Source: a virus. From it: 64,000 nucleotides of DNA. Shown in pieces: positions 3,035 through 34,149 of this stretch. The notes under the pieces were generated by a model, which was not told where the DNA came from, made no database searches, and saw nothing but the letters and a program-made list of their open reading frames with translations. Made by a program: the position numbers and the translations under genes. How positions within the stretch are numbered: position 1 is the first letter of the stretch; every line of letters starts with the position of its first letter. The DNA lies in IMG/VR virus record IMGVR_UViG_3300045988_134682, positions 33,707 to 97,706 of that record. One strand, 5' to 3'.

Positions 3035-3098
3035 CCAAGTTGGTTAAGGCGGCGGTCTGCAAAACCGCTATTCAGGGGTTCGAGTCCCCTTCCCGCCT
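3025..3098 (+). tRNA. tRNA-Cys(GCA): tRNA-Cys (anticodon GCA)
   Basis: Acceptor ggcggga/tcccgcc, anticodon stem gcggt/accgc with loop ctgcaaa, T-arm aggggttcgagtcccct. Confidence 0.85.
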
Positions 3099-3112
3099 CT
3101 TAAAAATCTTAA

Positions 3113-8083: not shown

Positions 8084-9460
8084 ATGCGTACTTTAAAGAG
8101 AGTAGATAAGAATTTAGCGGGTAAATTGAAGATTCCTAATAATATAACTAATATTGATAGTTTTGCTTTTAGCGGATGTAACAATTTAATATCAATAGAT
8201 ATCCCAAATAGTGTAACTCGAATTGATTCTGGTGCTTTTCAAGGTTGCAAAAATTTAACATCAATTCATCTTTCTGATAATATAACTTCTATTAATTGGG
8301 GAACTTTTGATAGTTGTAACAATTTAATATCAATAGATATCCCAAATAGTGTAACTCGAATTGGGGAGGGCGCCTTTAATTATTGTACGAGCTTAACATC
8401 AGTAAATATTCCAGATAGTGTAATTAGTATTGATAAGTTGGCTTTTAGAAATTGTAAAAAATTAACCTCAATAAATATTCCAGATGGTGTAATTAGTATT
8501 GGAGAAAAAACTTTTGAAGACTGTGCAAATTTAACTTCAATAAATATTCCAGATGGTGTGACCAATATTGGACAAGAAGCTTTTAAAAATTGTGCAAATT
8601 TAACTTCAATAAATATTCCAGATGGTGTAACTATTATTGGAGGTTCAGCTTTTGCTGGTTGCACGAATTTAACTTCAATAAATATTCCAGATAGTACTTC
8701 TGAAATTTATGTAGGAGCATTTAAAGATTGTGTAAATTTAACTTCAATTCGTTTTCCAGATGGATCAAAGTATGTTGCTGAGAGAGTTTGTGAAGGATGT
8801 TCAAACTTAACTTCTGTTGTTATAGCTGATAGTGTTGAAACAATTTATAAGTATGCTTTTTCTAAATGTTCTAATTTAATATCTATAGATATTCCTAGTA
8901 ATATAACTAAAATTAGTTCATATGCTTTTAGTGACTGTACAAATTTAACTTCAATTACTATTCCTAATAGTGCTGTTGATATTGAAATACATGCTTTTGA
9001 AAATTTACCTTATATGCCAAAAGGAACTTATGAATATAATTCTATGAAATATAAAAATGGAATATTATGTACTGGTATTTGGGAAGATGATTTATATTAC
9101 AAAGATGGAATATTAGGTACTGGTATTTATGAAGATAAATATTACAAAGATGGAGTACGTAGTATATTATTTACTGGTATTTATAATGATAAATACTATG
9201 AAAATGGTATGCTTTTCACTGGTATTAAGGACGGCCAATACTATGAAAATGGCGTACTTGCTAAACCAGCATATTCAACAATTACAGAATCTAATGGTGT
9301 TTTAGAAGTAACAGGTGATTATAAAGAAATCGCAAATGATAATGGCACAACTTTATATCTTGAAACGCTTGATGTTACTGAATCTAATGACACTTTAACG
9401 ATTAATAGTAATTATGTAAAAGAAATCCCTAACGAAAAGGGAACAACATTATATATTTAA
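8084..9460 (+). CDS. receptor-binding/adhesin-like protein: BspA-type leucine-rich repeats plus choline-type cell-wall-binding repeats
   Basis: About 12 tandem 22-aa LRRs (NLTSINIPDGVTxIGxxAFxxC). C-terminal YYKDG..TGIYEDKYY repeats resemble CW_binding_1 repeats. Confidence 0.7.
   Translation: MRTLKRVDKNLAGKLKIPNNITNIDSFAFSGCNNLISIDIPNSVTRIDSGAFQGCKNLTSIHLSDNITSINWGTFDSCNNLISIDIPNSVTRIGEGAFNYCTSLTSVNIPDSVISIDKLAFRNCKKLTSINIPDGVISIGEKTFEDCANLTSINIPDGVTNIGQEAFKNCANLTSINIPDGVTIIGGSAFAGCTNLTSINIPDSTSEIYVGAFKDCVNLTSIRFPDGSKYVAERVCEGCSNLTSVVIADSVETIYKYAFSKCSNLISIDIPSNITKISSYAFSDCTNLTSITIPNSAVDIEIHAFENLPYMPKGTYEYNSMKYKNGILCTGIWEDDLYYKDGILGTGIYEDKYYKDGVRSILFTGIYNDKYYENGMLFTGIKDGQYYENGVLAKPAYSTITESNGVLEVTGDYKEIANDNGTTLYLETLDVTESNDTLTINSNYVKEIPNEKGTTLYI
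8144..8990 (+). repeat. tandem 66-nt (22-codon) LRR-encoding repeats
   Basis: Near-identical nucleotide repeats, for example 8196-8250 versus 8319-8373. They also create a spurious antisense ORF. Confidence 0.7.
9044..9259 (+). repeat. tandem cell-wall-binding-type repeats (about 48-54 nt units)
   Basis: At least four repeats of the GTGIxxDxYYKDG motif. Confidence 0.55.
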
Positions 9461-9480
9461 TTTTAGGAAGAAAAAATATT

Positions 9481-9873
9481 ATGGCAATTAATAAAGTTAT
9501 TGTAAATGGTGAAACCAAACTTGATTTAACAGCTGATACTGCTACCGTAGATAATGTTCAAAAAGGTTTTACTTTTCATGATGCTACTGGTGTATTAAAA
9601 ACTGGAGTAGCTAATGTTGGCGGAATAGATGGTTATTATATTGAAAAGATTTTCGATGCTGATGAAATTCATAATGATAATAGTACTGTAAGTGTTGATG
9701 TTACCACAAATGGTAAGTATTGCTTCTTTTGTATCGATGAACTTAGTAGCTATATTAATATAATTGAATGGTATGACGGTAGTAATGGTTATAATAAAAC
9801 AGTATATGTTATATCTACTCAGCCCATTGAAAATCTATCATGGTATGAAAATAGTTCTTCTTCCTCTTACTAA
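9481..9873 (+). CDS. hypothetical protein (tail module)
   Basis: ORF with Ser-rich C-terminus. Confidence 0.45.
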   Translation: MAINKVIVNGETKLDLTADTATVDNVQKGFTFHDATGVLKTGVANVGGIDGYYIEKIFDADEIHNDNSTVSVDVTTNGKYCFFCIDELSSYINIIEWYDGSNGYNKTVYVISTQPIENLSWYENSSSSSY

Positions 9874-9894
9874 TTTTAACTCTATACAACATTT

Positions 9895-11550
9895 ATGTAT
9901 AAATTATCTATAATCACAATAAATAAAAATAATTCCATCGGATTAGAAAAAACAATTCAAAGTGTCATTAACCAAACGTATTTTGATAAAATAGAATATA
10001 TTATTATAGATGGGCTATCTACTGATAGCTCATCTTTTATAATAGACAAATACAAAGATTATTTTTCTTATTGGATTTCCGAAGAAGATAATGGTATTTA
10101 CGATGCAATGAATAAGGGTACTAATGCCGCCATAGGAAAGTATTTATTATTCTTAAATAGTGGAGATGTATTATATCATAATAAAATCATTGAAGAAATT
10201 TATTCAGAATTAAATACATATGATATTGTATATGGAGGCGTTGAATATGAAGGAGAAAAACATATTATTCGAATTCCTCCAGAAAAATTAGATTATATTT
10301 ATTTTTCAAAAAGACGATCAGTATTTCATCAGGGTGCTTTTATTTCTAAAAAATTATTATTAGAATTACCATACGACACTTCATATAAATTAATGGGAGA
10401 TGTAAATTTCTTTTTTAATGCAATATGTATAAAAAAAGCAACTTATAAAAGAATATTAAAAAAAATTGCTATTTTTGATATAAATGGGATATCTTCTAGA
10501 GAAGTTTATGCAAAAGAAAAAGAAAAAACTAAGATTCTATTAAATGGATTAAAATATATTGAAGACGAAAATATTAAACAAAATTTTCTAAAAAATATAA
10601 AAGTTTATAATCGACTTATTAATCAGCTTCCAATAGATTTTGTTTTTCCATATGTGGATAATTCCGATCCAAATTGGATTCAACAATATATGAACTGTTG
10701 TACTCGTCGTCGTATGAGATTTAATACAGAAGATGTTAGATATAGAGACTATGGCACTTTAAAATATCTTTTACGAGGAATTGATAAGTGTCTACCATGG
10801 ATTAGAAATATTTATATAATTGTTGAGCAAGAAAGTCAAGTGCCAAATTGGTTAAATAGAGATAATGTAAAAATAGTATATCACAAAGATATTATTCCAG
10901 AAGATTTTTTACCTACATATAATAGTGGAACTATTGAAATGTATTTAAAAAACATTCCTGAACTATCTGAATATTTTATATATGGAAATGATGATATGTT
11001 TCCTATTTCTTTAATGGATAAATCAAATTTTTTTGACGAAGATGGACTTCCTATTCTTTCAATGCAAAAATATCAAATGGAAGATAACTGGCGTCCTAAT
11101 ACATATCAATCTATGTTACTTAATTCTAATTTTATAGCTTATAATGATTTAAATCTTATAAGAGAAGATAATACAATAATAAAATGGAATCATACGATAA
11201 CTCCAATGAGGAAATCTACTTGGGAAGGATTATTTAATAGACATAGAGAAGAAATTGAAAAATCCTGTTCAACATTTAGATCTCCTAAAAATATAACTCA
11301 AGAATTAGTCAATTCATGGCATTATTTATCGGGTCAGTATAATAAAGATTATACATTAAAAGTGAATTATATTAGTATTCAAGATATAAAAAATGAAGAT
11401 ATCTTATATGAATCTATAAAAGATTATCAAGTTATTTGTATTAATGATGGTAATATAAATAAAGAAATTTTACCATTTGAAAAAATTAAAAGTATAATCT
11501 TGAATACATTTGAAAAATTATTCCCAGAAAAAAGTAAATATGAATTATAA
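9895..11550 (+). CDS. glycosyltransferase family 2 domain fused to a Stealth-family (hexose-1-phosphoryl transferase-like) domain
   Basis: N-terminus SIITINKNN...IEYIIIDGLSTD...EDNGIYDAMNKG matches GT2. Downstream IDFVFPYVDNSDPNWIQQY (Stealth CR2), RYRDYGTLKYLLRGIDKCLPWIRNIYIIV (CR3) and YGNDDMFPI (CR4). Confidence 0.65.
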   Translation: MYKLSIITINKNNSIGLEKTIQSVINQTYFDKIEYIIIDGLSTDSSSFIIDKYKDYFSYWISEEDNGIYDAMNKGTNAAIGKYLLFLNSGDVLYHNKIIEEIYSELNTYDIVYGGVEYEGEKHIIRIPPEKLDYIYFSKRRSVFHQGAFISKKLLLELPYDTSYKLMGDVNFFFNAICIKKATYKRILKKIAIFDINGISSREVYAKEKEKTKILLNGLKYIEDENIKQNFLKNIKVYNRLINQLPIDFVFPYVDNSDPNWIQQYMNCCTRRRMRFNTEDVRYRDYGTLKYLLRGIDKCLPWIRNIYIIVEQESQVPNWLNRDNVKIVYHKDIIPEDFLPTYNSGTIEMYLKNIPELSEYFIYGNDDMFPISLMDKSNFFDEDGLPILSMQKYQMEDNWRPNTYQSMLLNSNFIAYNDLNLIREDNTIIKWNHTITPMRKSTWEGLFNRHREEIEKSCSTFRSPKNITQELVNSWHYLSGQYNKDYTLKVNYISIQDIKNEDILYESIKDYQVICINDGNINKEILPFEKIKSIILNTFEKLFPEKSKYEL

Positions 11551-11565
11551 AAAAGGAGGCAAGAT

Positions 11566-12687
11566 ATGAAAGCACTAATTACTGGAATTAATGGGCAAGA
11601 TGGTTCATATCTTGCCGAGTTACTTTTATCGAAAAATTATGAAGTTCATGGAATTATTCGTAGAACATCGACGAACAATTTAAATAGAATTCAACATATT
11701 TTATCTAAAATTACTTTACATTATGGAGATTTATCAGATAGTTTGTCTTTGATAAAAATAATTCAAAATGTAAAGCCTGATGAAATATATAATCTTGCCG
11801 CACAATCAGATGTTAAGGTGTCATTCTCAACACCAGAATATACTGCTGATATTGATGCATTAGGAACTCTAAGATTACTAGAAGCGTGCAGAATTTGTGG
11901 AATAGATAAAACAGTTAAGTTTTATCAAGCCTCTACTTCTGAATTATTCGGAAAAGTAGAGGCTTTTCCACAATCCGAAACCACGCCATTTCATCCCTAT
12001 TCTCCATACGCAATTGCAAAACAATATTCGTATTGGATTGTAAAAGAATATAGAGAAGCATATAGAATGTTTGCGGTAAATGGTATTTTATTTAATCATG
12101 AATCTGAAAGACGTGGTGAAGAATTTGTAACTCGTAAGATAACAAAATCTGTAGCTCATATTATGAATGGCACACAAGACCATTTAGAATTAGGGAATTT
12201 AGATTCTTTAAGAGATTGGGGATATGCAAATGATTATGTTGAAGCAATGTGGTTAATGCTTCAAAACGATACCCCAGATGATTTTGTTATTGCTACTGCG
12301 GATGATGGCATTTTGATTAGTTCAAGAAATGATGCTGAAAAAATCAGAAATTTAATTCCACTTCATAGACCTAATTATGAAGAAAAAAGATGGGGCGCAT
12401 ATAAAGTTTTAAAACAAGATGATAATTATCTTGTTAAAGAATTAGAACTATTGCCTTATAAAGAAATATCTTATCAATCTCATAATTATAGAAAAGAAAC
12501 ATGGACTATTGTTCAAGGGTCTGGAGAAGTAATTATTGATGGTATTACTCAACAGGTAAAGTCTGGTGATATAGTCAATATAGAAATAAAACAAAAGCAT
12601 AAACTTATTGCTGGAGAAAATGGGATTAAAATTTTTGAAGTGCAAATAGGAGATGTGCTAGAAGAGTCTGATATTATTAGATATTAA
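11566..12687 (+). CDS. GDP-mannose 4,6-dehydratase-like SDR (truncated) fused to C-terminal cupin domain
   Basis: N-terminus [31 protein letters not shown] matches Gmd and runs to DDFVIATA. The last 110 aa or so ([30 protein letters not shown]) resemble a cupin beta-barrel. Confidence 0.65.
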
Positions 12688-13617: not shown

Positions 13618-13929
13618 ATGGCAGCATCTAAAAAAATTTTAGATGAAAATGGATTATTAGCATTATGGCATCAAATTGAAAATAATTTTATTTCATCTGA
13701 GAATATTGAACAAATTGTTTATGCAATTGAGTCAATTAAAGCAGATAAAGATTCTCCTGAATTTACAGGAATTCCAATTGCTCCAACCGCAAGTCCAAAT
13801 ACAAATACCACACAAATTGCAACTACTGAATTTGTTAATACTGCTATTGCTGAATTAAGTGCATTATTTTCTTCTTACAAAGAGCAAGTAGATAATGCTT
13901 TAGCAGAGATAAAAAATAAAATAGGCTAA
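13618..13929 (+). CDS. hypothetical structural protein with shared N-terminal motif
   Basis: RBS aaaaggagg. N-terminus MAASKKILDENGLLALWHQIE. Confidence 0.5.
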   Translation: MAASKKILDENGLLALWHQIENNFISSENIEQIVYAIESIKADKDSPEFTGIPIAPTASPNTNTTQIATTEFVNTAIAELSALFSSYKEQVDNALAEIKNKIG

Positions 13930-13967
13930 ATAGATATTTTATATCTATTTAGCCTATTTTATTTTTT
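13924..13967 (+). terminator. rho-independent terminator
   Basis: ggctaaatagatat/atatctatttagcc stem followed by a T-rich run. Overlaps the stop codon. Confidence 0.65.
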
Positions 13968-13968: not shown

Positions 13969-13997
13969 TTGATTTTTTATAAAAAATATATTATAAT
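13969..13997 (+). promoter_or_regulatory. conserved-family promoter
   Basis: ttgatt 13969-13974, 17-nt spacer, tataat 13992-13997, then atatatagaaaatgag. Confidence 0.55.
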
Positions 13998-14030
13998 ATA
14001 TATAGAAAATGAGAAAGAGGATAAATAAAA

Positions 14031-14840
14031 ATGAAAGATATTAGCTATTATTGGGCAGATAAATCTCAAAGAGCAATTATTGCACAAGAGCATACTAAGC
14101 AAATGAATGAGCAATTTGCTAGTGAGATTGCGGAAAGTGTAATGAATAGTAAAATTTATAGCAAAGATTTTAAAGCAACAACGCCCGCAAGAAATTTAGA
14201 GGAAGCAGATATTGCTCTTGATGCTGTTGGAAGTGTTGAAGCTATTGTAGCTTGCGATTCTACAGATGGAAAAGTTGCGGTTCTTAATTTCGCTTCATAT
14301 AAAAATCCTGGCGGAATGTTTATTAATGGGTCTCGTGCTCAGGAAGAATGTCTGTGCCATGAATCTTTTCTTTACAACGTATTAAGCCAAATTCCAAATT
14401 ATTATGATTGGAATGAAAAACACAAGAATCGTGCTTTATATGAGAATAGAGCAATTTATTCTCCAAATATCAGATTTGAGCATTCTGGCATTGAAAAATA
14501 CTGCGATGTAATTACTTGCGCCGCACCTAATTTTACTGCCGCTGCAAAGTATTGCAACGTAGATAGAAAAGAAAATAAAAAAGTTCTTGAATCAAGAATT
14601 CGATTCGTTTTTGAAGTAGCAAAACAGAATCAGGTTGATACTCTCATTTTAGGGGCTTTTGGATGCGGAGTGTTTGGACAGAATGCAGATGATGTTGCAG
14701 AAATTTTTATCAATCTGTTAGTTACAGATTATGCAACTGAATTTAAGAAAGTAATTTTCGCAATTCCGATTATCAATAATGATTCTATCAATTACAGTAA
14801 ATTTCAGAATATGTTTGATGAATTGTTAGAGGAGAATTAA
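14031..14840 (+). CDS. PARG-like macrodomain protein (DUF2263 / bacterial-type poly(ADP-ribose) glycohydrolase family)
   Basis: Signature NFASYKNPGGMFINGSRAQEECLC (GGG-x6-8-QEE) and glycine-rich ILGAFGCGVFGQN diphosphate-binding loop. Confidence 0.6.
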   Translation: MKDISYYWADKSQRAIIAQEHTKQMNEQFASEIAESVMNSKIYSKDFKATTPARNLEEADIALDAVGSVEAIVACDSTDGKVAVLNFASYKNPGGMFINGSRAQEECLCHESFLYNVLSQIPNYYDWNEKHKNRALYENRAIYSPNIRFEHSGIEKYCDVITCAAPNFTAAAKYCNVDRKENKKVLESRIRFVFEVAKQNQVDTLILGAFGCGVFGQNADDVAEIFINLLVTDYATEFKKVIFAIPIINNDSINYSKFQNMFDELLEEN

Positions 14841-14841
14841 T

Positions 14842-15051
14842 ATGAATTCTTTTACTATCACAATTACAAATTGCCTTGATTGTCCAGACCATGATGTTCG
14901 TCCTATTTACACTCCAGATTCTTGGGACCATGAGGAAGGATGTTATTGTAAACTTGCTAAAGATGTAAATGGATATGACAAATTAGTTGCAGGAGACGAT
15001 TGGCATTTAAGAAGATATACTGACATTCCAGATTGGTGTCCAAAATTATGA
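14842..15051 (+). CDS. small Cys-rich hypothetical protein
   Basis: CLDCPDH...CYC...WCP pattern. Start overlaps the upstream stop. Confidence 0.4.
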   Translation: MNSFTITITNCLDCPDHDVRPIYTPDSWDHEEGCYCKLAKDVNGYDKLVAGDDWHLRRYTDIPDWCPKL

Positions 15052-15356
15052 CGTATATTTCTGAATATTTTTATAGTAATTGCTTAATCGAAGCTATTAA
15101 AGCTAAGATTAAGCATCCTATAAAAGTAAAAATAAAATATATTCCAGCAAGATTAAATGAAGTATTTTGTCCGCATTTAATGTGGCATGATGGTGAATAT
15201 ACTTATGATTTTTGGGCTTGCGGGCATTTAAAGCCATATCAAATTTTATGGCATAAAGGTAAGATAAGAAAAAACGAATATGATTATTATGATAAATGTA
15301 TAAAAACTTTAAAAGAATGGAAAGAAAGAGGTAAACAAGATGCCGGTAAGAGATGA
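15033..15356 (+). CDS. hypothetical protein
   Basis: ORF overlapping both neighbours (operonic). Confidence 0.4.
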   Translation: MVSKIMTYISEYFYSNCLIEAIKAKIKHPIKVKIKYIPARLNEVFCPHLMWHDGEYTYDFWACGHLKPYQILWHKGKIRKNEYDYYDKCIKTLKEWKERGKQDAGKR

Positions 15357-16215
15357 TTTAGGTACTCGTATGAAAACCTTTTATGAAAATATTCCTAAAA
15401 CTCGACTTATGAGAAGAGTTCCAGTAGCAATTAGGCTGGACGGCAAGGCGTTTCATACTTTTACAAGAGGTTTTCAAAAGCCATTTGATTTTGTGCTAAT
15501 GGATACAATGCAACAAACAATGAAATATTTATGTGAAAATATTCAAGGATGTGTATTGGGATATACTCAGTCTGATGAGATTACATTGATTCTTGTTGAT
15601 TATAAGAAATTAAATTCTGCTGCATGGTTTGATTATGAAGTTCAGAAAATGTGCAGTATCGCAGCAAGTATGGCTACAATGGCGTTTAATAGATTTTTCA
15701 TGTATGAATATGAAGAGTTTAATAGATGGGTTAATGAAGGAAATCCAACAGATGAAGATAGACGATTAAATGATATTTATTATGATGCGATGTGTAAAGG
15801 TGCAATGTTTGATGCACGTTGTTTCAATATTCCAAAAGAAGAAGTAACTAACCTCATTTATTGGCGGCAACTTGATGCAACAAGAAATAGTATTCAAATG
15901 GTTGGACAAGCTCATTTTTCACATGATGAGCTTCAAGATAAAACTTGTAATATGATTCAAGATATGTTAATGACCAAGTATGGCATTAACTGGAATGATT
16001 TTACAACACCATGTAAACGAGGCACTGCATGTATTAGAATTGGAAAAAAAGTAACTGAAAATATCAAAAGAGAACCTCAACCTTTTGGAGAAGATAAAGT
16101 TACAACTACAATTATTGAAGAAAGACCTATCTGGGTTATTGACAAGAATATGCCTATTTTAAAAGGCGAAGACCGCAAATATGTTGATGATTTAATTTAC
16201 ATAGGAGAAGAATAA
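15340..16215 (+). CDS. Thg1-like protein (tRNA-His guanylyltransferase family, 3'-5' nucleotidyltransferase)
   Basis: VPVAIRLDGKAFHTFTRGFQKPFD...VLGYTQSDEITLIL aligns with the Thg1/TLP core motifs (RxDG+xFHxF, KPxD, YGQSDE). Confidence 0.75.
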   Translation: MPVRDDLGTRMKTFYENIPKTRLMRRVPVAIRLDGKAFHTFTRGFQKPFDFVLMDTMQQTMKYLCENIQGCVLGYTQSDEITLILVDYKKLNSAAWFDYEVQKMCSIAASMATMAFNRFFMYEYEEFNRWVNEGNPTDEDRRLNDIYYDAMCKGAMFDARCFNIPKEEVTNLIYWRQLDATRNSIQMVGQAHFSHDELQDKTCNMIQDMLMTKYGINWNDFTTPCKRGTACIRIGKKVTENIKREPQPFGEDKVTTTIIEERPIWVIDKNMPILKGEDRKYVDDLIYIGEE

Positions 16216-16368
16216 ATGATAAGAGGATATAGCATTTCTGAAGAGGATATTGATAGAGTAATGCCTTTTGTAAGAGGTGTGATTCATGAACTTGAAGTCA
16301 GTATTTCTATGTATTATTGCGGATATACAGGAGAAATTTCTTTGGGTATTTGTGAGGAGGAATGCTAA
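16216..16368 (+). CDS. small hypothetical protein (50 aa)
   Basis: Start adjacent to the upstream stop. Overlaps the next start. Confidence 0.3.
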   Translation: MIRGYSISEEDIDRVMPFVRGVIHELEVSISMYYCGYTGEISLGICEEEC

Positions 16369-16796
16369 TGGGGTGTAATTATGATATTACAAAAGTGAAT
16401 AAATTATTTAATTTGGCAGTTCAATATTATCCTAAGAAAAAATTAGTTCATGCTTTGCGGGTTGCTGAATATGCGACCGCAAAAGCCAGTGCTTTAAAAA
16501 TTGATACAGTAAAGACTTATATGATCGCCTTAGCGCACGATTTGTTAGAGGATACTGAATGTCCAAAAGAAGATTTAATGTCTATTTTAGGTATAGAGAG
16601 TTATAATTCAGTAGTTCTTTTAACTAAAGATGCACAAGAAAAATATGAAGATTATATTCATAAGATTCTTGATGCAGGAGATGACTATGCTTTTGTTGTT
16701 AAACAGGCAGATATGAAAGACCATATGACTTTAACTGATACACTTACAGAAAAATTGCTGGATAAATATATTCCTGTATTGCATTATTTCTTATAA
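16362..16796 (+). CDS. HD-domain phosphohydrolase (YfbR/DatZ-like dNTPase or Mesh1/SpoT-like hydrolase)
   Basis: H...HALRVA...ALAHDLLEDT motif (H, HD, D metal ligands). Confidence 0.55.
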   Translation: MLMGCNYDITKVNKLFNLAVQYYPKKKLVHALRVAEYATAKASALKIDTVKTYMIALAHDLLEDTECPKEDLMSILGIESYNSVVLLTKDAQEKYEDYIHKILDAGDDYAFVVKQADMKDHMTLTDTLTEKLLDKYIPVLHYFL

Positions 16797-16810
16797 GGAA
16801 GGATTTATGT

Positions 16811-17167
16811 ATGATTTTTAACTGGAAAGAGAAAATGTTTTTAATTATTCTTTTATGTATATTATTTACATCTTTAAATATGTTTTTTCGACCTAAATCT
16901 GCGGAAAAGATGCAAATTTTTCCATCTTATGATTGGGGAAGTGAAGAAGAAGAAATTTTAGCTTATATTTCTGCAAATACAAATGGAACTGATAAAGATA
17001 AACAACAAGCTGTTATTGATTGTTTAGATTATGTATGGGACGCAAATCATCATTTTAATATTTCTGAATATGCTTCTGCGAAATATAAATTTTATGTTGA
17101 ACCAACCCAGCATGATTATGAACTTGTAAGATTGGTTAAAAAGGGACAATGGGCAACCGATGATTAA
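16811..17167 (+). CDS. hypothetical membrane/secreted protein
   Basis: N-terminal hydrophobic helix MFLIILLCILFTSLNMFF. Confidence 0.4.
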   Translation: MIFNWKEKMFLIILLCILFTSLNMFFRPKSAEKMQIFPSYDWGSEEEEILAYISANTNGTDKDKQQAVIDCLDYVWDANHHFNISEYASAKYKFYVEPTQHDYELVRLVKKGQWATDD

Positions 17168-17199
17168 AGGAGAAAGTTTAAATACTTTCTCCTTTTTTT
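17167..17199 (+). terminator. rho-independent terminator
   Basis: ggagaaagt/actttctcc stem followed by T7. Confidence 0.65.
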
Positions 17200-17226
17200 G
17201 ATTTTTTATTAAAAATTTATTATAAT
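17198..17226 (+). promoter_or_regulatory. conserved-family promoter
   Basis: ttgatt 17198-17203, 17-nt spacer, tataat 17221-17226, then atatatagaaaattaaaggaaggtg. Confidence 0.55.
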
Positions 17227-17258
17227 ATATATAGAAAATTAAAGGAAGGTGAGAAAGC

Positions 17259-18080
17259 ATGGCAGATCTTAATACAATAACTAAAGCGGCTAGTGGTATT
17301 CAAGAGCATTATCTTGAATCTAAACAATACTTTGCTAAGAATAATATTGTAGGTATTTTTCTACAAGGTAGTCAGAATTATGGTCTTGAAACTGAAGATT
17401 CTGATATTGATACAAAACTTATTACCACTCCAACATTAAATGATTTAATTTATAACCGAAAACCTATGTCTACAACTCATTTTAGGGCTAATGGGGAACA
17501 TATTGATTTTAAAGATATTAGGCTTATGTTTGATACTTTCCGCAAACAGAATCTAAATTTTATTGAGATTCTGTTCACTAATTATAAAATCATCAATCCA
17601 ATGTATGAAAAAGAGTGGAATAAATTGATTGCGGAAAATGAAGTTATTGCACATTATAATCCTTATTTCGCAGTAAAAGCTATGTCTGGCATTGCTCTTG
17701 GAAAAAGATATGCTCTTACTAAAGAAACAGAAGCTCATAAAGGAACCTTTGAAAAGTTTAATTATGACCCAAAACAGCTTTATCAGCTTGTGAGAATTGA
17801 TGAATATCTCGATAAATATATTGCTGGAGCGCCATATAAAGAATGTTTGTGTCCAGCTAACCCGCAATATTTAAAAGACATTAAAACTGGTCTTTATTCA
17901 AAAGAAGAAGCTATTAAAGTTGCAGATGAACATATGACTCATATTGATAAAATTTGTGCCCCATATACAAAAGATTCTGAATTTAACTACATTGATGAAG
18001 AAGCTGAAAATCTTCTGCAAGAAGTCCAAGCGGAAATTATGAAGAAAAGTATTGCTTTTGAATTGGAGGAAAAGAAATGA
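17259..18080 (+). CDS. Pol-beta-superfamily nucleotidyltransferase-domain protein
   Basis: GSQNYGLETEDSDID (GS-x10-DxD) motif near the N-terminus. Helical C-terminal domain. Confidence 0.5.
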   Translation: MADLNTITKAASGIQEHYLESKQYFAKNNIVGIFLQGSQNYGLETEDSDIDTKLITTPTLNDLIYNRKPMSTTHFRANGEHIDFKDIRLMFDTFRKQNLNFIEILFTNYKIINPMYEKEWNKLIAENEVIAHYNPYFAVKAMSGIALGKRYALTKETEAHKGTFEKFNYDPKQLYQLVRIDEYLDKYIAGAPYKECLCPANPQYLKDIKTGLYSKEEAIKVADEHMTHIDKICAPYTKDSEFNYIDEEAENLLQEVQAEIMKKSIAFELEEKK

Positions 18081-18865
18081 TTAAACAGTTTTTTGTAACA
18101 GGAGATACACATGGCTGTATGGATCGTTTTACATGGCTTGAAATACAAAATCCAAAAGAGACTGGTATTATTATCTTAGGAGATGCAGGTGTAAATTTTT
18201 ATAAAAGTGCGGCAAGGCAACATGATATTAAGATGCAACTTGAACAATATGGATGTACATTTTATTTGGTAAGGGGGAATCATGAGGCTCGTCCAGAAGA
18301 TGTTAAAGGCATTGAAGAGGTTTGGGATGATGATGTTGCGAATTATGTTTTCATTGAACCCGGTTATCCTCATATCCATTATCTTATGGATGGCTCTAAT
18401 TATGATTTTCTTGGTCATAATACACTTGTAATAGGTGGAGCTTATTCTGTGGATAAATGGTATAGACTTGAAAATCATTATACTTGGTATCCAAACGAAC
18501 AATTAACAGAAGCAGAAATGCAGGCTATTGAAGCAATGTATGCGGGACAAAGTTTTGATTTTGTTTTTACTCATACTTGTCCATTAAGCTGGGAACCAAC
18601 TGACTTATTTTTATCTATGATTGACCAGTCTACTGTAGATGATTCTATGGAAGTTTGGCTTGATTCTTTTAAAGATAAGATTAATTGGGGCGTTTGGCTG
18701 TTTGGTCACTTTCACGCAGATAGAATGGAGCGCCCGCATGTTGAACAATATTTTAAAGCAATCGAAGATTTAGAAGAGATATGGAAAAGATGGAATGATC
18801 CAAATTATTTACTTCCAACTTATTTTAGAAAATCTCCTAATTTTAATAAAGGAAAAACTGAATAA
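18077..18865 (+). CDS. calcineurin-like metallophosphoesterase
   Basis: Motifs GDTHG, GDAG, GNHE and GHFH. Confidence 0.65.
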   Translation: MIKQFFVTGDTHGCMDRFTWLEIQNPKETGIIILGDAGVNFYKSAARQHDIKMQLEQYGCTFYLVRGNHEARPEDVKGIEEVWDDDVANYVFIEPGYPHIHYLMDGSNYDFLGHNTLVIGGAYSVDKWYRLENHYTWYPNEQLTEAEMQAIEAMYAGQSFDFVFTHTCPLSWEPTDLFLSMIDQSTVDDSMEVWLDSFKDKINWGVWLFGHFHADRMERPHVEQYFKAIEDLEEIWKRWNDPNYLLPTYFRKSPNFNKGKTE

Positions 18866-18880
18866 GTTTTTCCTTTATTG
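18851..18880 (+). terminator. rho-independent terminator
   Basis: ggaaaaact...agtttttcc stem followed by a T-run. Confidence 0.55.
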
Positions 18881-18906
18881 ATTTTTTATTAAAATTATAA
18901 TATAAT
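18878..18906 (+). promoter_or_regulatory. conserved-family promoter
   Basis: ttgatt 18878-18883, 17-nt spacer, tataat 18901-18906, then atatatagaaagttaaggaaagg. Confidence 0.55.
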
Positions 18907-18939
18907 ATATATAGAAAGTTAAGGAAAGGATAAAAAGAA

Positions 18940-19122
18940 ATGATTAAAATTCTTAAATCTGGTAACAAATATGGTTATCGGTTAAAATGTTCAAAATGTC
19001 ATTGTGTATTTATTGCATCACAAGATGAATGTCGAAATTCTATTTTTTCATATTTTAGATGTCCAGATTGTGGAAGTATTGTTGAAAAGAAACTTTATAC
19101 TAAAAAAGTAAGACTTGACTAA
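18940..19122 (+). CDS. zinc-ribbon hypothetical protein
   Basis: CSKCHC...CPDCGS pattern. Confidence 0.45.
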   Translation: MIKILKSGNKYGYRLKCSKCHCVFIASQDECRNSIFSYFRCPDCGSIVEKKLYTKKVRLD

Positions 19123-19140
19123 AGAGAGGATTGATACATT

Positions 19141-19959
19141 ATGAAATATTTTATTGACTTTGAAGCAATGCAGTTTTCCAATTATATTATTTCTGTTGGA
19201 TGTGTTCGAGAAGATGGAAAAGAATTTTATTCTCTTGTACATACCCCAGAGAATACAAATAAGAATGTTTCTAAGTTTATCACTGATTTAACAGGTATTA
19301 CTACAGAAATGGTTGAGGCAGCTCCTTCTCCAGAAGAGGTATTCAATGAGTTTTTTGATTTTTGTTTTGAAGATTGCGGCGATGACATTCCTGAATTTTA
19401 TTGTTATGGGAATTGTGATACAGATTTTATCAAAGCAACCTTCCGCAAAACAAATAGTTTTAAAGCAAAAGCAATTCTTGGTTATATGAATACAGATATG
19501 AAAGATTTTGCTCCTGCTGTTAAGGTTCATTTTGGCTTAATCAAACTGATTAACCTCGCTAAAGTTTGCGAATATTTTAGAGGAGAAGAGGTTGTTCAGA
19601 CTCATAATTCTCTTGACGATGCAAAGATGTTAAAAGAAGTTTATGAAGGCTGTAAAAATGAAAAAGCTTCTGAAGTAGATGCAAATGTCTTTATGGAGTA
19701 TAAGGAAATTACAACCGACCAGATTGAATATGAAGATACTCGTTTTGATGTTTTTTGTTGCCCTACTAAAAATTTTGAAGAAGAAAGAACTAAGAAATTT
19801 GAAAATCTTAAAGAAGCAGTTGAATACGTTAAATCATATGATAAGAGCATGAGAAATAATCCGACTGTAAATGTCCACAATATTGCCAAAAGGATTAAAA
19901 AATCCTATAATACAAAGAAACAGTACAACTTCTACTATTGGAAATTTGAGGTGAAATAA
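19141..19959 (+). CDS. DEDDh 3'-5' exonuclease (DnaQ/epsilon-like), candidate proofreading subunit or RNA exonuclease
   Basis: Exo I FIDFEA, Exo II ...YGNCDTDF region and Exo III HNSLDDAKML motifs. Confidence 0.6.
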   Translation: MKYFIDFEAMQFSNYIISVGCVREDGKEFYSLVHTPENTNKNVSKFITDLTGITTEMVEAAPSPEEVFNEFFDFCFEDCGDDIPEFYCYGNCDTDFIKATFRKTNSFKAKAILGYMNTDMKDFAPAVKVHFGLIKLINLAKVCEYFRGEEVVQTHNSLDDAKMLKEVYEGCKNEKASEVDANVFMEYKEITTDQIEYEDTRFDVFCCPTKNFEEERTKKFENLKEAVEYVKSYDKSMRNNPTVNVHNIAKRIKKSYNTKKQYNFYYWKFEVK

Positions 19960-20288
19960 TGATTAAACTTTGGATTGATGATATGCGGCCCGCGCCAGAT
20001 GAATCTTATATTTGGATTAAGAGTGTTTGGGATGCAGAAATGTGTCTTACTACTCTTGTAAGACCAGAAGGAGACATTCTTGAAGTTAATGAAATTAATT
20101 TAGATCATGATGCTGGTGAATATTATGAAAAAGGCGGAGATTATATTAAAATTCTTGATTGGCTTGAATGTTGCCAAAGACTGCGTGGCTGGCATATTTA
20201 TGCAACTTTTAAATTTCATAGTATGAATCCTGTTGGAGTTCAAAATATGAAAAGAGTTTGTAAGGAAGCTGGTTGGAGAATTGAGTAA
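19959..20288 (+). CDS. hypothetical protein
   Basis: Coupled ORF. Confidence 0.4.
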   Translation: MIKLWIDDMRPAPDESYIWIKSVWDAEMCLTTLVRPEGDILEVNEINLDHDAGEYYEKGGDYIKILDWLECCQRLRGWHIYATFKFHSMNPVGVQNMKRVCKEAGWRIE

Positions 20289-20674
20289 TGGAATATTGGA
20301 GAAGACAAAGATTAAAAGAAATTATAAAACACATTGTAGTTGTGGTACTTATTGTCGCAGCTTGTATTGGAATTATAACTGGGATAATAAAGTATTATGA
20401 CCAATTTTATTTAAAAACTGAAGTAAGAGCAGTTGAAGTTATAAATAAAGAAGATGATGTACATCATTCTTTTGTAATGAGCGGGAAAGTTCTTATTCCT
20501 ATTACAAATCATTCATATTATTTATATGGCGTAAATAATGAAAAAGTAAGCGTTTCTTCTTCTATATTTAATGCGGTTAAAGAAGGAGATAAGATACAGG
20601 TAAAATGTACCTATGTTTACTATAAAAAAGATGATTCTTTACATAAAATAGAGTATAAATATTTAGAGGAATAA
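20288..20674 (+). CDS. hypothetical membrane protein
   Basis: TM helix IVVVVLIVAACIGIITGII. Confidence 0.4.
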   Translation: MEYWRRQRLKEIIKHIVVVVLIVAACIGIITGIIKYYDQFYLKTEVRAVEVINKEDDVHHSFVMSGKVLIPITNHSYYLYGVNNEKVSVSSSIFNAVKEGDKIQVKCTYVYYKKDDSLHKIEYKYLEE

Positions 20675-20677
20675 AAT

Positions 20678-21253
20678 ATGAAAATTAAAAACTTTTTTGG
20701 GCACTTAAAAACGGTATGTAAACATAAATATTGGGTAGGAAAATACTGCTTTAAAATTGGTCTTTATAAGCAGGGAATTACACACGATTTATCCAAATTT
20801 TCTCCTGTTGAATTTTGGGAAGGTGTCAAATATTGGCAGGGGACTCGTTCTCCGATAGATGCTTGTAAAGAGGAAAATGGAATGTCCTTTGCTTGGCAGC
20901 ATCATAAAGGTCGGAATCGACACCATTACGAGTACTGGTTCGATAACATTGATAAAGGCGGCACCGCACTCCCAATGCCAGATAAGTATCTTTTGGAGCT
21001 ACTCTGTGATTATTTAGGTGCGGGACATGCTTATATGGGAAAAAATTTTACATATCAAGAAGAATATAAGTGGTGGCAGAATAAGATTAAGAATCCTATT
21101 GCTATGCATCCTGCGACTAAAATTTTTATAGATAAAGTATTATCTCGTTTAGCATGGAGAGAAGAGCATAATGTTGGATATAAGGCACTTTTAAATAAGA
21201 AAAATCTCATTAAGATTTATCACGAATGTTTGAAAGAAACAGATCTTAATTGA
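20678..21253 (+). CDS. hypothetical His/Trp-rich protein
   Basis: ORF; no recognisable motif. Confidence 0.4.
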   Translation: MKIKNFFGHLKTVCKHKYWVGKYCFKIGLYKQGITHDLSKFSPVEFWEGVKYWQGTRSPIDACKEENGMSFAWQHHKGRNRHHYEYWFDNIDKGGTALPMPDKYLLELLCDYLGAGHAYMGKNFTYQEEYKWWQNKIKNPIAMHPATKIFIDKVLSRLAWREEHNVGYKALLNKKNLIKIYHECLKETDLN

Positions 21254-21278
21254 TTTACTTTTAAAATTTTTATATAAT
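21249..21278 (+). promoter_or_regulatory. sigma-70-like promoter
   Basis: ttgatt 21249-21254, 18-nt spacer, tataat 21273-21278. Confidence 0.45.
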
Positions 21279-21310
21279 ATATTTACAATAAATAAAGGAG
21301 ATTGATAGGT

Positions 21311-22492
21311 ATGCTGAATGAAAAGAAAGAAAGAGAGCTTGCTTATGTTGTCAAAGTTGATGAGATTCGTCCTATTGAAGGAGCTGACAGAGTAGAAGTA
21401 GCTATCGTAAATGGTTGGCATATTATGGTTCGTAAAGACCAATTTAAGCCAGGCGATTTAGCTGTTTACTTTGAGATTGATTCTAAAGTTCCAGCAGAAG
21501 AGCCATTTATGTTCCTTGAGCCGAAACATTTTAAAATTAAAACTCAGAAATATTTTAAAGGCACTGTAATTTCTCAGGGTCTGCTTATGAGCTTTGAAGA
21601 CTTCGGTTGGGAAAAGGACGCTTATAAACTTGGTGACTTTTTAACTCAGAAATTAAAAGTAACTTATGCAGTTGAAGAAGATAATGCTCGTAAAGCATCT
21701 TCTGTGGATAAGTATAAAAAGATGGCTCAGAGACATGGAAAATTGTTCTCTCATCAGCCTTTTAGATGGTTAATGCGTAGAACTTGGGGTAAGAAAATTT
21801 TATTCATGTTCTTCGGTAAAACTTCTGATAAGAAAACCGGATGGCCGACATGGGTTTCTAAAACAGATGAAGAGCGTGTACAGAATATGCCTTGGATTCT
21901 TGAGAATAAAAATCCATGGGTTGCAACTGAAAAAATTGATGGTACTTCTACTACCTTTACAATGAAAAGAATTAAGACTCGTTTCTTGAAGAAAGAAAAA
22001 TTTGAGTTTTATATCTGTTCTCGTAACGTAGTATTTGATAGACCAGATAAGTCTTGCTTTTATGATACTAATGTTTACGTTGAGATGGCTGAAAAGTATA
22101 ATGTTGAAGCAACTCTCCAGGAGATTCTCAGAAATCGTCCAGACCTTGAATGGGTAACACTTCAGGGTGAAACTTATGGTCAGGGTATCCAGAAGAGAGA
22201 ATACTCTCTGAAAGAGCATAACTTTATGGGATTTAACTTCATTACTTCTGCGGAAGGTCGTTGGGATTCTAAACGGGCAAGCAAGTTGATGATGGAGTAT
22301 GGTATTCCGTGGGTGCCGATTGTTGATGAAAACTTTATCCTTCCAGATACAGTTGATGAACTTCTTGCTATTGCTACCGGTGATTCTGTGATAGATGGAA
22401 AGATGCGTGAAGGTCTTGTATTCCGTTCTCAGGATGGCGTTCAGTCCTTTAAGGCTGTTTCCAATGAATTTCTACTGAAGTTCCATTCTTAA
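21311..22492 (+). CDS. ATP-dependent RNA ligase-like nucleotidyltransferase (Rnl5/DraRnl-like: N-terminal OB domain plus ligase NTase)
   Basis: Motif I ATEKIDGTS (KxDG), motif IV EGLVFR, motif V SFKAVSNEFLLK. About 200-aa N-terminal OB-like domain. RBS aaaggag 11 nt upstream of ATG 21311. Confidence 0.6.
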   Translation: MLNEKKERELAYVVKVDEIRPIEGADRVEVAIVNGWHIMVRKDQFKPGDLAVYFEIDSKVPAEEPFMFLEPKHFKIKTQKYFKGTVISQGLLMSFEDFGWEKDAYKLGDFLTQKLKVTYAVEEDNARKASSVDKYKKMAQRHGKLFSHQPFRWLMRRTWGKKILFMFFGKTSDKKTGWPTWVSKTDEERVQNMPWILENKNPWVATEKIDGTSTTFTMKRIKTRFLKKEKFEFYICSRNVVFDRPDKSCFYDTNVYVEMAEKYNVEATLQEILRNRPDLEWVTLQGETYGQGIQKREYSLKEHNFMGFNFITSAEGRWDSKRASKLMMEYGIPWVPIVDENFILPDTVDELLAIATGDSVIDGKMREGLVFRSQDGVQSFKAVSNEFLLKFHS

Positions 22493-23466: not shown

Positions 23467-23928
23467 ATGACACTTGATACAGTTATGAAAGAGATGGTTA
23501 CTGCAATGAAGGCTAAAGACAAGGCTCGAAAAGATATTATTTCTAGTCTTGTTGATGCTATTAAAAAGGCGGCTATTGATAAAAATTGCCGAAATAACAT
23601 TCCAGAAGACATGGTTGATGCAGTTATCTTAAAAGAGCAAAAAACCGTACAGGAAATGATTGATACCTGCCCTGCCGCAAGAATAGACCTTTTGGAATCT
23701 TATAAGTATAGACTTGAAGTAATTAAAGAATTTGCTCCAACTCTTATGACAGAGGATGAAATTCGATCTTTTATTAATGAAGAGTTAATTGAGCTTACTC
23801 AGGTCGTTACTGAACCTATTGGACCAAAAATGAAGGGTATGGTTATGAAAAATATTATGCCTAAACTTAAAGGCAAAGCAGATGGAAAACTTATCAATAA
23901 AGTTCTTACTGAACTTTTGAACCAGTAG
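23467..23928 (+). CDS. GatB/YqeY-domain protein
   Basis: MKEMVTAMKAKDKARKDII...LTEDEIRSFINEE...GMVMKNIMPKLKGKADGKLINKVLTELL closely mirrors the YqeY family pattern. Confidence 0.6.
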   Translation: MTLDTVMKEMVTAMKAKDKARKDIISSLVDAIKKAAIDKNCRNNIPEDMVDAVILKEQKTVQEMIDTCPAARIDLLESYKYRLEVIKEFAPTLMTEDEIRSFINEELIELTQVVTEPIGPKMKGMVMKNIMPKLKGKADGKLINKVLTELLNQ

Positions 23929-24870: not shown

Positions 24871-24914
24871 GTAAACAACAAATAATTATTATAAAAGATA
24901 TGAGGTGTAAAAAT

Positions 24915-25655
24915 ATGAGTCATGTATATTGTTGTTCTGATCTTCATGGTCAGTATGATTTATGGGAAATGGTAAAAAATATTGTATATGCAGACAATAG
25001 TTTTTGCTACATTTTAGGTGATTGTGTAGATAGGGGTCCAGCAGGATTCAAGATTTTAAAAGAAGTTCTTGAAGATTCTGAACATTTCTTCTTAATCTGC
25101 GGCAACCATGAACAGATGTTTGCAGATTCTATGCGGATAAAGCATTGCACAAGACTTCATTGTGCTAATGGTGGTCAATCTACTTTTGATGAATGGAAAG
25201 CAGATGGAAGTGATAGAAAATACATTGATATTATCGACAACTTGCCTAAGTGGTATCGTTATGATAATAAAAATGGAGAAGTTGTAATTTTATCTCATTC
25301 AGGTTTTACGCCTGGCCCACACTTAGGATTTCCAGAGTTTGAAGATGATTTTATTTGGAATCGAGATCATTTTGATGATGAATGGGATGAAAAAGGCGGA
25401 ATGGATAATGTAATTCTTATTCATGGACATACTCCTGTACCTCTTTTAAGTCATCATTCTTATGAATATATGTGTGAGATGAGTGGAAAGAAAGCTTCTC
25501 ATGGAGCATATTTCTATTGCAAAGATTCTGCTGGCAAAGCTCATAAAATTGATATTGATGGCGGATGTTTCTTTACAGGAAGTTTACCATTAATTGATTT
25601 GGATACTTTGGAACAAAATGTATTATTTGATGCAAATAGCATTTTTGAGGACTAA
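24915..25655 (+). CDS. PPP-family Ser/Thr (lambda-phosphatase/ApaH-like) metallophosphatase
   Basis: Motifs SDLHG, GDCVDRGP, GNHE and GHTP. RBS gaggtg before ATG 24915. Confidence 0.7.
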   Translation: MSHVYCCSDLHGQYDLWEMVKNIVYADNSFCYILGDCVDRGPAGFKILKEVLEDSEHFFLICGNHEQMFADSMRIKHCTRLHCANGGQSTFDEWKADGSDRKYIDIIDNLPKWYRYDNKNGEVVILSHSGFTPGPHLGFPEFEDDFIWNRDHFDDEWDEKGGMDNVILIHGHTPVPLLSHHSYEYMCEMSGKKASHGAYFYCKDSAGKAHKIDIDGGCFFTGSLPLIDLDTLEQNVLFDANSIFED

Positions 25656-33900: not shown

Positions 33901-34149
33901 ATGATTCAAAACTTAATATTTTTTATTTTAGGAATAATTTTTATTGAATTAATAATTCCTGTAATAGAGGCTCTAACAATAGTAATTGTCACTGCTTTAG
34001 AGGTTGCCAAAGGTAAACTAAACATGACAATTTCTAAATATAATATACAAATCCAAAAGATGGCAGAAGAACTTGAGCCAGAAAATACACGCGCCATTGG
34101 GTTTGTAGTACAAAATAATGAACCAGAGGAAGAAGAGGAAGACGAATGA
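33901..34149 (+). CDS. small membrane protein with acidic tail
   Basis: RBS aaaaggagg. TM helix LIFFILGIIFIELIIPVI. Confidence 0.4.
   Translation: MIQNLIFFILGIIFIELIIPVIEALTIVIVTALEVAKGKLNMTISKYNIQIQKMAEELEPENTRAIGFVVQNNEPEEEEEDE

Follow-up and report, generated by a model that had tools for sequence, protein, structure and literature searches.

We find that the 64,000-nucleotide stretch of viral DNA analysed here (positions 33,707 to 97,706 of IMG/VR record IMGVR_UViG_3300045988_134682; below, the window, numbered from its first letter) carries a phage version of a recurrent, putative RNA-repair module, made up of a PARG, a Thg1-like protein (TLP), an RNA ligase, an RlaP-type nucleotidyltransferase (NTase) and a phosphoesterase. 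Approximately 12 of the roughly 35 open reading frames (ORFs) between 14 and 31 kb belong to families that process RNA or nucleotide ends, and this clustering is genuine. From the families and the gene neighbourhoods together we infer a multi-operon toolkit that, on balance, probably mends damaged RNA ends, with tRNA ends the most likely targets. An initial annotation, made from the letters alone, had proposed such a repair island at positions 14,031 to 22,492; all of the ORFs it named are intact, lie on the + strand and are located as it had them.

The strongest functional evidence comes from bacterial operons. Bacterial genomes, each species represented by a single genome, were scanned with profile guidance, and we obtained 80 TLP loci, 79 of them non-identical, which derive mostly from gut Clostridia (Lachnospiraceae and Oscillospiraceae), cultured isolates included; a few appear to be phage contigs binned into metagenome-assembled genomes (MAGs; e.g. 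loci L244 and L215). Home-built hidden Markov models detected at least one of the island families in 53 of the 79 loci; in 34 of the 79 such a gene was no further than 1.5 kb from TLP. The metallophosphoesterase (MPE) lay within 1.5 kb of TLP in 14 of the 79, and PARG adjoined TLP in six Clostridia-type genome loci (within 6 kb in nine). Operon layouts were drawn from Pfam scans of three loci. The Acetatifactor locus (L202, 5117-8533) reads PARG-TLP-Rnl5 (OB plus ligase)-Tpt1/KptA and is flanked by ABC transporter genes; the Coprococcus locus (L211, 4827-8634) reads RNA ligase-TLP-PARG-MPE and sits beside ftsH; and the Blautia glucerasea locus (L230, 1187-6810) has RlaP-PARG-MPE and an ORF without assigned function, with TLP further along. 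Two further loci have a Pnkp-like kinase-phosphatase fusion near TLP. A search of the window for Tpt1/KptA did not find it.

The operon copies of PARG and Rnl share 32-36% identity with those of the phage, and TLP shares 60% (Acetatifactor). We conclude that the linkage is old and has been kept up over time, and this argues for a common function of PARG, TLP, the ligase, RlaP and MPE. It is the recurrence of these genes as chromosomal operons in Clostridia that leads us to treat them as a module, and the match between the phage set and the operons of gut Clostridia makes horizontal transfer between phage and bacteria likely.

Neighbourhoods in related phages point to a core cassette. A set of 80 loci was seeded with the ligase, 76 of which are divergent (53-66% identical). 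In these 76, the kinase was found near Rnl in 62 and a second metallophosphoesterase, MPE2, in 64, nearly always directly downstream, so that the core is an Rnl5-kinase-phosphoesterase cassette, unbroken in about 62 of the 76; in the lineage of the window, about 7.3 kb of other genes lie between ligase and kinase. Less frequent near Rnl were MPE (21/76), the RlaP-like NTase (17/76, within 10 kb and often directly upstream), a lambda-phosphatase-like enzyme (16/76), TLP (10/76), the cyclic-phosphate-processing receiver protein cREC (6/76), DUF5662 (6/76) and an HD protein resembling small alarmone hydrolases (SAH; 3/76). All 10 divergent loci with TLP have it less than 4.7 kb from Rnl, in shuffled orders such as Rnl-TLP-kinase-MPE2 (L064) and TLP-NTase-MPE-Rnl (L057). 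We also sampled eight unrelated phages that carry TLP. In four of them the annotation places an RNA-end enzyme no more than about 2 kb from TLP: polynucleotide kinase (PNK) in Pound, a COG0617 NTase in Vibrio phage 1.170.O, a tRNA NTase in Aeromonas phage 2L372D and a 2H phosphoesterase in Weasels2.

Family identities and neighbourhoods were established directly, as was the retention of catalytic motifs in PARG, TLP, the alarmone-hydrolase-like protein, the RlaP-like NTase and the Rnl5 ligase. Profile searches assigned the ORFs to the Thg1, RNA-ligase, PARG and PNK-like families, in agreement with the initial annotation, whose calls of a GatB/YqeY protein at 23467, a PNK-like kinase and phosphoesterase at 29870-30936, a metallophosphoesterase and four tRNA genes also held; cREC, DUF5662 and the lambda-phosphatase-like enzyme had been overlooked. 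Coordinates and principal matches are collected in Table 1.

Table 1. Features of the window, with predicted transcription units (E-values are for the profile or structure named)
Feature	Position	Strand	Evidence or content
Four tRNA genes (Leu-UAA, Gly-UCC, Lys-UUU, Cys-GCA)	1489-3099	+	ARAGORN, Rfam
Hairpin and T-run, then TTGATT-N17-TATAAT	13916-13962, then 13969-13997	+	Predicted start of unit 1
Predicted unit 1	13969-17167		PARG, two small ORFs, TLP, small ORF, SAH-like HD protein, ORF without assigned function
Bacterial-type PARG (DUF2263/TIGR02452 macrodomain)	14031-14840	+	Pfam PARG_cat_microb 7.6e-30
Small ORF, 69 aa	14842-15051	+	phrog_29585; with the next ORF, abuts or overlaps PARG and TLP
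Small ORF, ~102-107 aa	15033-15356	+	With the preceding ORF, abuts or overlaps PARG and TLP
Bacterial-type TLP, predicted 3'-5' nucleotidyltransferase	15340-16215	+	Pfam Thg1 PF04446 2.9e-28
SAH-like HD protein (RelA/SpoT hydrolase type)	16362-16796	+	HDLLEDT motif
118-aa ORF	16811-17167	+	Last gene of unit 1
Hairpin and promoter-like site	17166-17226		3' of last unit-1 gene
Predicted unit	17198-18865		RlaP-like NTase, MPE
Probable divergent RlaP-family (RNA-ligase-associated Pol-beta) NTase	17259-18080	+	GS...SDxD...D motifs
Calcineurin-type MPE	18077-18865	+	Metallophos 2.7e-8; translationally coupled to NTase
Predicted unit	18878-21253		Small ORF, exonuclease, cREC, 128-aa ORF, DUF5662
DEDD (RNase T/DnaQ-like) 3'-5' exonuclease	19141-19959	+	RNase_T 2.6e-16
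cREC domain protein	19959-20288	+	PF20274 6.4e-13, 49.6 bits (cutoff 27)
128-aa ORF	20288-20674	+	Between cREC and DUF5662
DUF5662 protein, all-helical	20678-21253	+	2.4e-33; invariant H...HD...HH...HH.E...D pattern
Predicted unit	21250 to ~24640		Rnl5 through YqeY; promoter-like site 21250-21278
Rnl5-type ATP-dependent RNA ligase	21302-22492	+	PHA02142 OB domain 7.2e-22; RNA_ligase 1.7e-20
YqeY/GatB-like protein	23467-23928	+	Pfam YqeY 3.1e-23; in Rnl transcription unit
Predicted unit	from 24644		Lambda-phosphatase-like gene
Lambda-phosphatase/NinI-like metallophosphoesterase	24900-25655	+	phrog_246 1.4e-35; 1G5B 9.6e-7
Predicted unit	from 29490/29582		Zinc-ribbon ORF, kinase, MPE2
Zinc-ribbon-like ORF	29647-29988		Two CxxC pairs; precedes kinase and overlaps its start
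Pnk-like P-loop 5'-kinase (MKHKILFLMCGPAGSGKT...)	29870-30388	+	AAA_33 7.6e-17; phrog_505 (polynucleotide kinase) 7.6e-18
Metallophos_2 phosphoesterase (MPE2)	30385-30936	+	Pfam 3e-8; phrog_547 6e-45; 1XM7 4.7e-6
Promoter-like copies, examples	13969, 17198, 18878, 21250, 24644, 27731, 29490, 29582	+	Motif scan

The PARG-like macrodomain called at the outset is a full-length match to TIGR02452 (3.8e-60; 203.6 bits against a cutoff of 50) and matches the PARG of T. curvata (3SIG, 2.6e-23); aligned to the latter, it keeps the catalytic QEE (NPGGMFINGSRAQEE) and the GAFGCGVFG diphosphate loop. The Thg1 homologue (98.8 bits against a Pfam cutoff of 29.2) is, by its sequence, a member of the bacterial TLP subgroup. 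It is closer to the Bacillus thuringiensis TLP (BtTLP; 4KGK, 4.9e-52) than to human Thg1 (5.1e-8), and D34 and S78-D79-E80, which contain its three metal-binding carboxylates (the Asp of RxDG, and the Asp and Glu of SDE), are invariant in 19 aligned homologues. The eukaryote-specific HINNLYN motif is absent; the phage protein reads WRQLDATRNS where BtTLP has WRQQDASKNS. It also contains an insertion of about 30 amino acids that is specific to its clade, and another at the C-terminus.

The HD protein, which probably starts at the ATG at 16368, had been read as an HD phosphohydrolase for end healing. Membership in the HD family stands, at a weak Pfam score (1.4e-4; 22.5 bits against a cutoff of 22), and generic end healing does not: the model and sequence comparisons indicate a small alarmone hydrolase fold of the RelA/SpoT type. 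TIGR00691 is matched at an E-value of 3.6e-4, far under its cutoff, one homologue carries PF13328, and the best PDB sequence match is the (p)ppApp hydrolase 7SMG (1.6e-4). Residues H30, R33, H59-D60, E63-D64 and D117 are invariant. In Foldseek searches with an AlphaFold2 model (pLDDT 91.5), the top 22 matches were all RSH hydrolases (TM-score 0.56-0.78, probability 1.0), among them 7SMG (0.73), MESH1, PaSAH (0.78) and Rel/SpoT. Because a PurZ-like gene is present in the window, we considered a DatZ-like dATPase as well, and rejected it since both sequence and fold match the RelA/SpoT hydrolases.

The Pol-beta NTase was initially called on a weak match (3.6e-4), and it can now be assigned, as a probable member, to the RlaP family. 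The window protein by itself reaches RlaP PF10127 at an E-value of 0.03 (14.5 bits against a cutoff of 23), and its family profile found no match in the PDB. The link to RlaP is drawn from Pfam scans of family members, 13 of 18 of which match the RlaP model (best 5.9e-12), and from comparison of the family profile with T4 NrdC.11 (hhalign probability 83%, E 8.5e-6), a known RlaP member (PMC12776372). The closest named phage with an NTase homologue is Phass-1 (L094, OQ749652.1), of the stop-codon-recoded 'code 15' clade, in which the gene lies directly upstream of a 30-tRNA array with a suppressor tRNA.

The ligase bears out the call of an RNA ligase with an N-terminal OB domain (PF21189, residues 13-96; nucleotidyltransferase domain PF09414, residues 205-386). 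It aligns over both domains with Naegleria NgrRnl (5COT, 2.4e-28), and the alignment preserves KIDG (the lysine motif), LQGE, REGLVF and FKAVSN (motif V), from which we consider it to be of the Rnl5 type, predicted to seal nicks (PMC4408790, PMC7261155). With 95 bits it falls below the cutoff of 151 for the NCBIfam equivalog TIGR02306 (DRB0094), and by this measure it is a family relative of DRB0094 and not an equivalog. The kinase has weak PDB matches, the best being the kinase of Clostridium thermocellum Pnkp (CthPnkp; 4GP7, 3.4e-4) and T4 Pnk (1LY1, 8e-3); its gene context, beside ligase and phosphoesterase, fits a polynucleotide kinase. MPE2 is translationally coupled to it. The lambda-phosphatase-like protein shares a clade with the phosphatase domain of bacterial Pnkp. 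The zinc-ribbon-like ORF that precedes the kinase sits behind two identical promoter-like copies and had no Pfam match.

Other members of the region are less readily tied to the module. The DEDD family assignment of the exonuclease is sound; its part in the pathway is not backed by any evidence that we found, and it is near Rnl in 0 of the 76 divergent loci. It has a C-terminal extension of about 100 amino acids and matches phrog_192 ('DNA polymerase exonuclease subunit') and PolC/DnaQ-type NCBIfam models, and may be a DNA proofreader. DUF5662 may be a distant phosphohydrolase of the HD superfamily; in other genomes it adjoins gyrase and lysin genes, and we found no support for its membership of an RNA-repair module, to which its link is weak. 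The cREC family was defined in an earlier survey of phage genomes (PMC7824862).

Nearly all coding in the window is on the + strand, and the genes appear to be divided into several transcription units. We counted 19 copies of a promoter-like motif, TTGAT-N18-TATAAT with an A/T-rich spacer, all of them on the + strand (0.42 copies expected by chance); the motif often lies immediately 3' of a hairpin and T-run. We believe that it probably marks early or middle transcription units. Most of the window uses this promoter class, which therefore does not set the island apart.

If the toolkit acts on RNA ends as we favour, the Pnk-like kinase would turn 5'-OH into 5'-phosphate ends and MPE2, MPE and the lambda-phosphatase-like enzyme (perhaps cREC as well) would remove 2',3'-cyclic or 3'-phosphates, which together would make ends ligatable in the manner of T4 Pnkp and CthPnkp (PMC2190708). 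PARG would strip ADP-ribose that blocks 5'-phosphate ends or 2'-OH groups; bacterial PARGs clear RNA of ADP-ribose, both at 5'-phosphate ends and at 2'-OH groups, and have been proposed as repair enzymes for ends blocked in this way (PMC11833690). Its action would yield the 5'-phosphate needed by both TLP and Rnl5. TLP could then use templated 3'-5' addition to replace nucleotides lost from the 5' end of a base-paired stem, much as TLPs repair 5'-truncated tRNAs by rebuilding the acceptor stem with the 3' strand as template (PMC3701042), and the RlaP-like NTase could restore one or two 3' nucleotides, as RlaP adds 1-2 nucleoside monophosphates to damaged RNA 3' ends (PMC12776372). The alarmone-hydrolase-like protein would either remove 3'-pyrophosphate from tRNA CCA ends or degrade alarmones (PMC7824862); some small alarmone hydrolases reverse the pyrophosphorylation of tRNA CCA by toxic alarmone synthetases (bioRxiv 10.1101/2021.04.30.441581). 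Finally, Rnl5 would seal 3'-OH/5'-phosphate nicks within duplex regions, Rnl5 ligases being known to seal RNA nicks in duplexes. The toolkit would likely serve to maintain functional tRNAs in the face of host defences that target RNA. The end-repair role originally proposed is backed by conserved neighbourhoods; we found no support for extending it to the exonuclease, the HD protein is not a generic end healer, and the exonuclease and DUF5662 may be bystanders.

Several observations weigh against this interpretation. Replication and other genes also occur near Rnl in the divergent loci (gyrase B in 33/76, RNase H in 27/76 and a PIN-PhoH gene in 24/76), so that general synteny of the early region explains part of the pattern, and with this confounder only Rnl-kinase-MPE2 is clearly a cassette in this phage family. 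We have tempered our use of co-occurrence with Rnl as proof of function for the same reason, as replication genes co-occur equally often. PARG, like the exonuclease, was near Rnl in none of the 76 divergent loci; no homologue of another window ORF was found within 20 kb of PARG in Lak-A1; and in phage G the PARG and Thg1 genes are about 225 kb apart. The support for PARG is drawn from bacterial genomes and not from other phages. Among the unrelated TLP phages sampled, Fnu1, PMBT8, TsarBomba and Xoo-sp13 have no annotated RNA-repair gene beside TLP. The promoter class is common to most of the window, and the co-regulation that it implies is not specific to the island. Rnl5 ligases prefer duplex nicks to breaks in an anticodon loop, and we know of no host nuclease that truncates tRNA 5' ends.

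A narrower form of the repair hypothesis, which we think unlikely though worth stating, concerns unit 1 alone: it might be a dedicated counter-defence module that reverses nucleotide blocks made by toxins on tRNA termini. It would reverse ADP-ribose placed on 5'-phosphates or 2'-OH groups by ADP-ribosyltransferase toxins (of the Tpt1/KptA or RhsP2 type), restore lost 5' nucleotides of the acceptor stem, and undo the 3'-CCA pyrophosphorylation carried out by CapRel/FaRel2-type toxic alarmone synthetases. Should this prove correct, bacterial-type TLPs would have a physiological role assigned to them for the first time, and the unit would be the first case of a phage encoding enzymes that reverse these modifications of tRNA.

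Slightly more doubtful still is the idea that the enzymes mature or maintain the phage's own tRNAs, some 30 in number, and have nothing to do with tRNAs damaged by defences. Completion of 3' ends would fall to the NTase, TLP would ensure that tRNA-His has its G-1 or would put 5' ends right, and 3' trailers would be removed by the exonuclease. There is something to recommend it: judging by the flanking sequence, none of the four window tRNA genes encodes its 3' CCA, and these genes are the tail of a longer array, which in close relatives comprises about 27-30 tRNA genes, tRNA-His included; 23-27 were counted in the 21-kb loci of L177-L180 that extend upstream of the window start. The position of the Phass-1 NTase homologue, directly upstream of its tRNA array, and the adjacency of TLP to tRNA nucleotidyltransferase genes in two phages point the same way. 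However, the tRNA-His gene in the relatives' arrays itself encodes G-1 opposite C73, because of which TLP as a G-1-adding enzyme is weakened as a candidate; the characterised RlaP adds 1-2 nucleotides to damaged RNA and does not add CCA (PMC12776372); and maturation needs no ligase, 5'-kinase or PARG. Moreover, the gene set forms operons in bacterial chromosomes, where no phage genes were recognised among the neighbours examined.

We regard it as improbable that the ligase, kinase, phosphoesterases, PARG and exonuclease work on DNA ends, or on junctions of RNA with DNA, in phage replication and DNA repair. Rnl5 ligases do seal duplex nicks that include RNA:DNA hybrids, and loss of DraRnl radiosensitises Deinococcus (PMC5397189), in which DNA damage also induces the operon of ligase, PARG and HD/PNK (PMC11833690); the region adjoins genes for gyrase, RNase H, NAD-dependent DNA ligase and Pol III alpha, and the exonuclease matches DnaQ/PolC proofreaders. 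Against this, every published assay has shown TLP and RlaP to be specific for RNA, a bacterial operon contains the RNA 2'-phosphotransferase Tpt1/KptA, and an NAD-dependent DNA ligase is separately encoded at 43512-45467. Least probable of all is that there is no pathway, and that independent accessory genes are held together by the conserved early-region layout of the phage family, as could be argued from replication genes being as frequent near Rnl as the accessory enzymes are, from DUF5662 lying elsewhere beside gyrase and lysin genes, from the limitation of PARG and the exonuclease to near-identical relatives and from the single promoter type of the whole window, yet PARG, TLP, Rnl5, RlaP and MPE recur as tight operons in distant bacterial chromosomes and TLP remains near Rnl despite rearrangement.

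The initial annotation held that a Thg1-like enzyme in a phage toolkit of this kind was not a described system, and this claim fails. TLP genes are present in 164 phage records of GenBank, and the rows listed mostly carry the annotation tRNA-His guanylyltransferase. The linkage of Thg1 with PNK, Macro and RNA ligase, and the presence of Thg1 in phage, were described in 2010 (PMC2904730), in a study whose organism list includes Coprococcus eutactus and Eubacterium rectale; and Thg1, RlaP, cRec, Macro and an HD alarmone phosphodiesterase were discussed in 2021 as parts of phage counter-defence or RNA repair (PMC7824862). As the set is present in gut Clostridia and the association has already been published, we present it as a rich new example and not as a novel type of system. 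Its additions to what was known are modest: a set of unusual completeness, centred on an Rnl5-type ligase, in a gut phage that has not been cultivated; a clear match to the PARG-TLP-Rnl5-Tpt1/KptA operons of Clostridia; and an SAH-like enzyme that shares a predicted transcription unit with PARG and TLP.

Comparison with known systems helps to place the phage set. The classical pair of T4, Pnkp and Rnl1, directed against the PrrC anticodon nuclease, likewise combines a phage-encoded 5'-kinase, 3'-phosphoesterase and ATP-dependent RNA ligase, presumably in order to restore tRNAs cut by the host. The window differs in that its ligase is of the Rnl5 type (N-terminal OB domain, sealing of duplex nicks) and not Rnl1, its kinase and phosphatase are separate genes, and its phosphatase is a metallophosphoesterase instead of a HAD enzyme; it adds TLP, RlaP, PARG, the alarmone hydrolase and cREC, and no target nuclease is known for it. 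The bacterial TLP neighbourhoods with PNK, Macro and RNA ligase (Anantharaman, Iyer and Aravind 2010, PMC2904730) show the same combination, whereas the window has it in a phage, spread across four to six transcription units over 17 kb, with the alarmone hydrolase, cREC and lambda-phosphatase-like enzyme added and without a Tpt1/KptA gene in the window. Deinococcus radiodurans associates a bacterial-type PARG with a ligase and polynucleotide kinase/phosphatase (DRB0100-DRB0099-DRB0098: ligase, bacterial PARG and HD-phosphatase/PNK) and has an Rnl5-family ligase, DraRnl (DRB0094), nearby; unlike the window, this set lacks TLP and RlaP, is tied to the DNA-damage response and has its kinase fused to an HD phosphatase. 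The jumbo-phage complement (Iyer et al. 2021, PMC7824862) shares RNA ligases, PNK, phosphoesterases, RlaP, a CCA-adding enzyme, Thg1, cRec, Macro and the HD alarmone phosphodiesterase. That survey reports mostly presence or absence across genomes and calls Thg1 sporadic, whereas in the window most of the parts are gathered within 17 kb, in a gut phage below jumbo size and with a ligase of the Rnl5 type. Lastly, CthPnkp, with its kinase, metallophosphoesterase and ligase-like domains, is the best PDB match of the window kinase, and the protein at 24900-25655 belongs to the lambda-phosphatase clade as the CthPnkp phosphatase does (PMC2190708), but in the window the activities reside in separate proteins and the ligase comes from a different family.

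It is not yet known on which substrates bacterial Thg1-like proteins and Rnl5 ligases act in nature. What Rnl5 ligases do physiologically has been termed "uncharted" (PMC5397189), and for TLPs a role in tRNA quality control is so far a suggestion (PMC3701042). Together, the phage set and the Clostridia operons provide compact, testable enzymes in which ADP-ribose removal, 5'-end rebuilding and nick sealing are linked, and the operons lend themselves well to experiments on what bacterial TLPs do naturally. The two together also suggest that gut phages and Clostridia are actively contending over the modification and repair of RNA ends. We see the value of the set as an experimental entry point and not as a new principle.

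The window has a G+C content of about 32% and comes from a human gut metagenome contig of 194,726 bp; the uncultivated phage is about 195 kb in size. Its close relatives are IMG/VR contigs of about 195 kb, and synteny of the whole stretch between 14 and 31 kb is kept in about 10 near-identical IMG/VR and MAG contigs. A megablast search of the island DNA against 50,697 phage records gave no match; the lineage is known from metagenomes only, and its probable host is a Clostridia bacterium. The standard genetic code reads cleanly in the studied part of the window, and an Rfam scan of the window found the four tRNAs and nothing else.

A number of other genes were noted. Directly after the tRNA genes, at 3358-4881, is a gene for a 507-amino-acid protein with DUF2828 and DUF7788, domains that may resemble the TROVE/vWA module of Ro60-type RNA-binding proteins; it lies less than 10 kb from the RNA ligase in 11 of the 76 divergent relatives. 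The PIN-domain and PhoH-like ATPase fusion at 34146-35393, found near the ligase in 24 of these relatives, is a possible RNA-processing enzyme. Positions 8084-12687 hold a surface or glycan cluster, comprising a BspA-type leucine-rich-repeat protein, a Stealth/GT2 glycosyltransferase and a GDP-mannose 4,6-dehydratase-cupin fusion. At 28094-29272 (with 27781-28092 upstream) there is a gene for a PurA-like protein with matches to phrog_1211 (2.1e-37; PurZ-type '2-aminooxy adenylosuccinate synthetase') and to Pfam Adenylsucc_synt (1.3e-18), its PDB sequence matches being weak ones to PurA only; the phage DNA might carry 2-aminoadenine in place of adenine.

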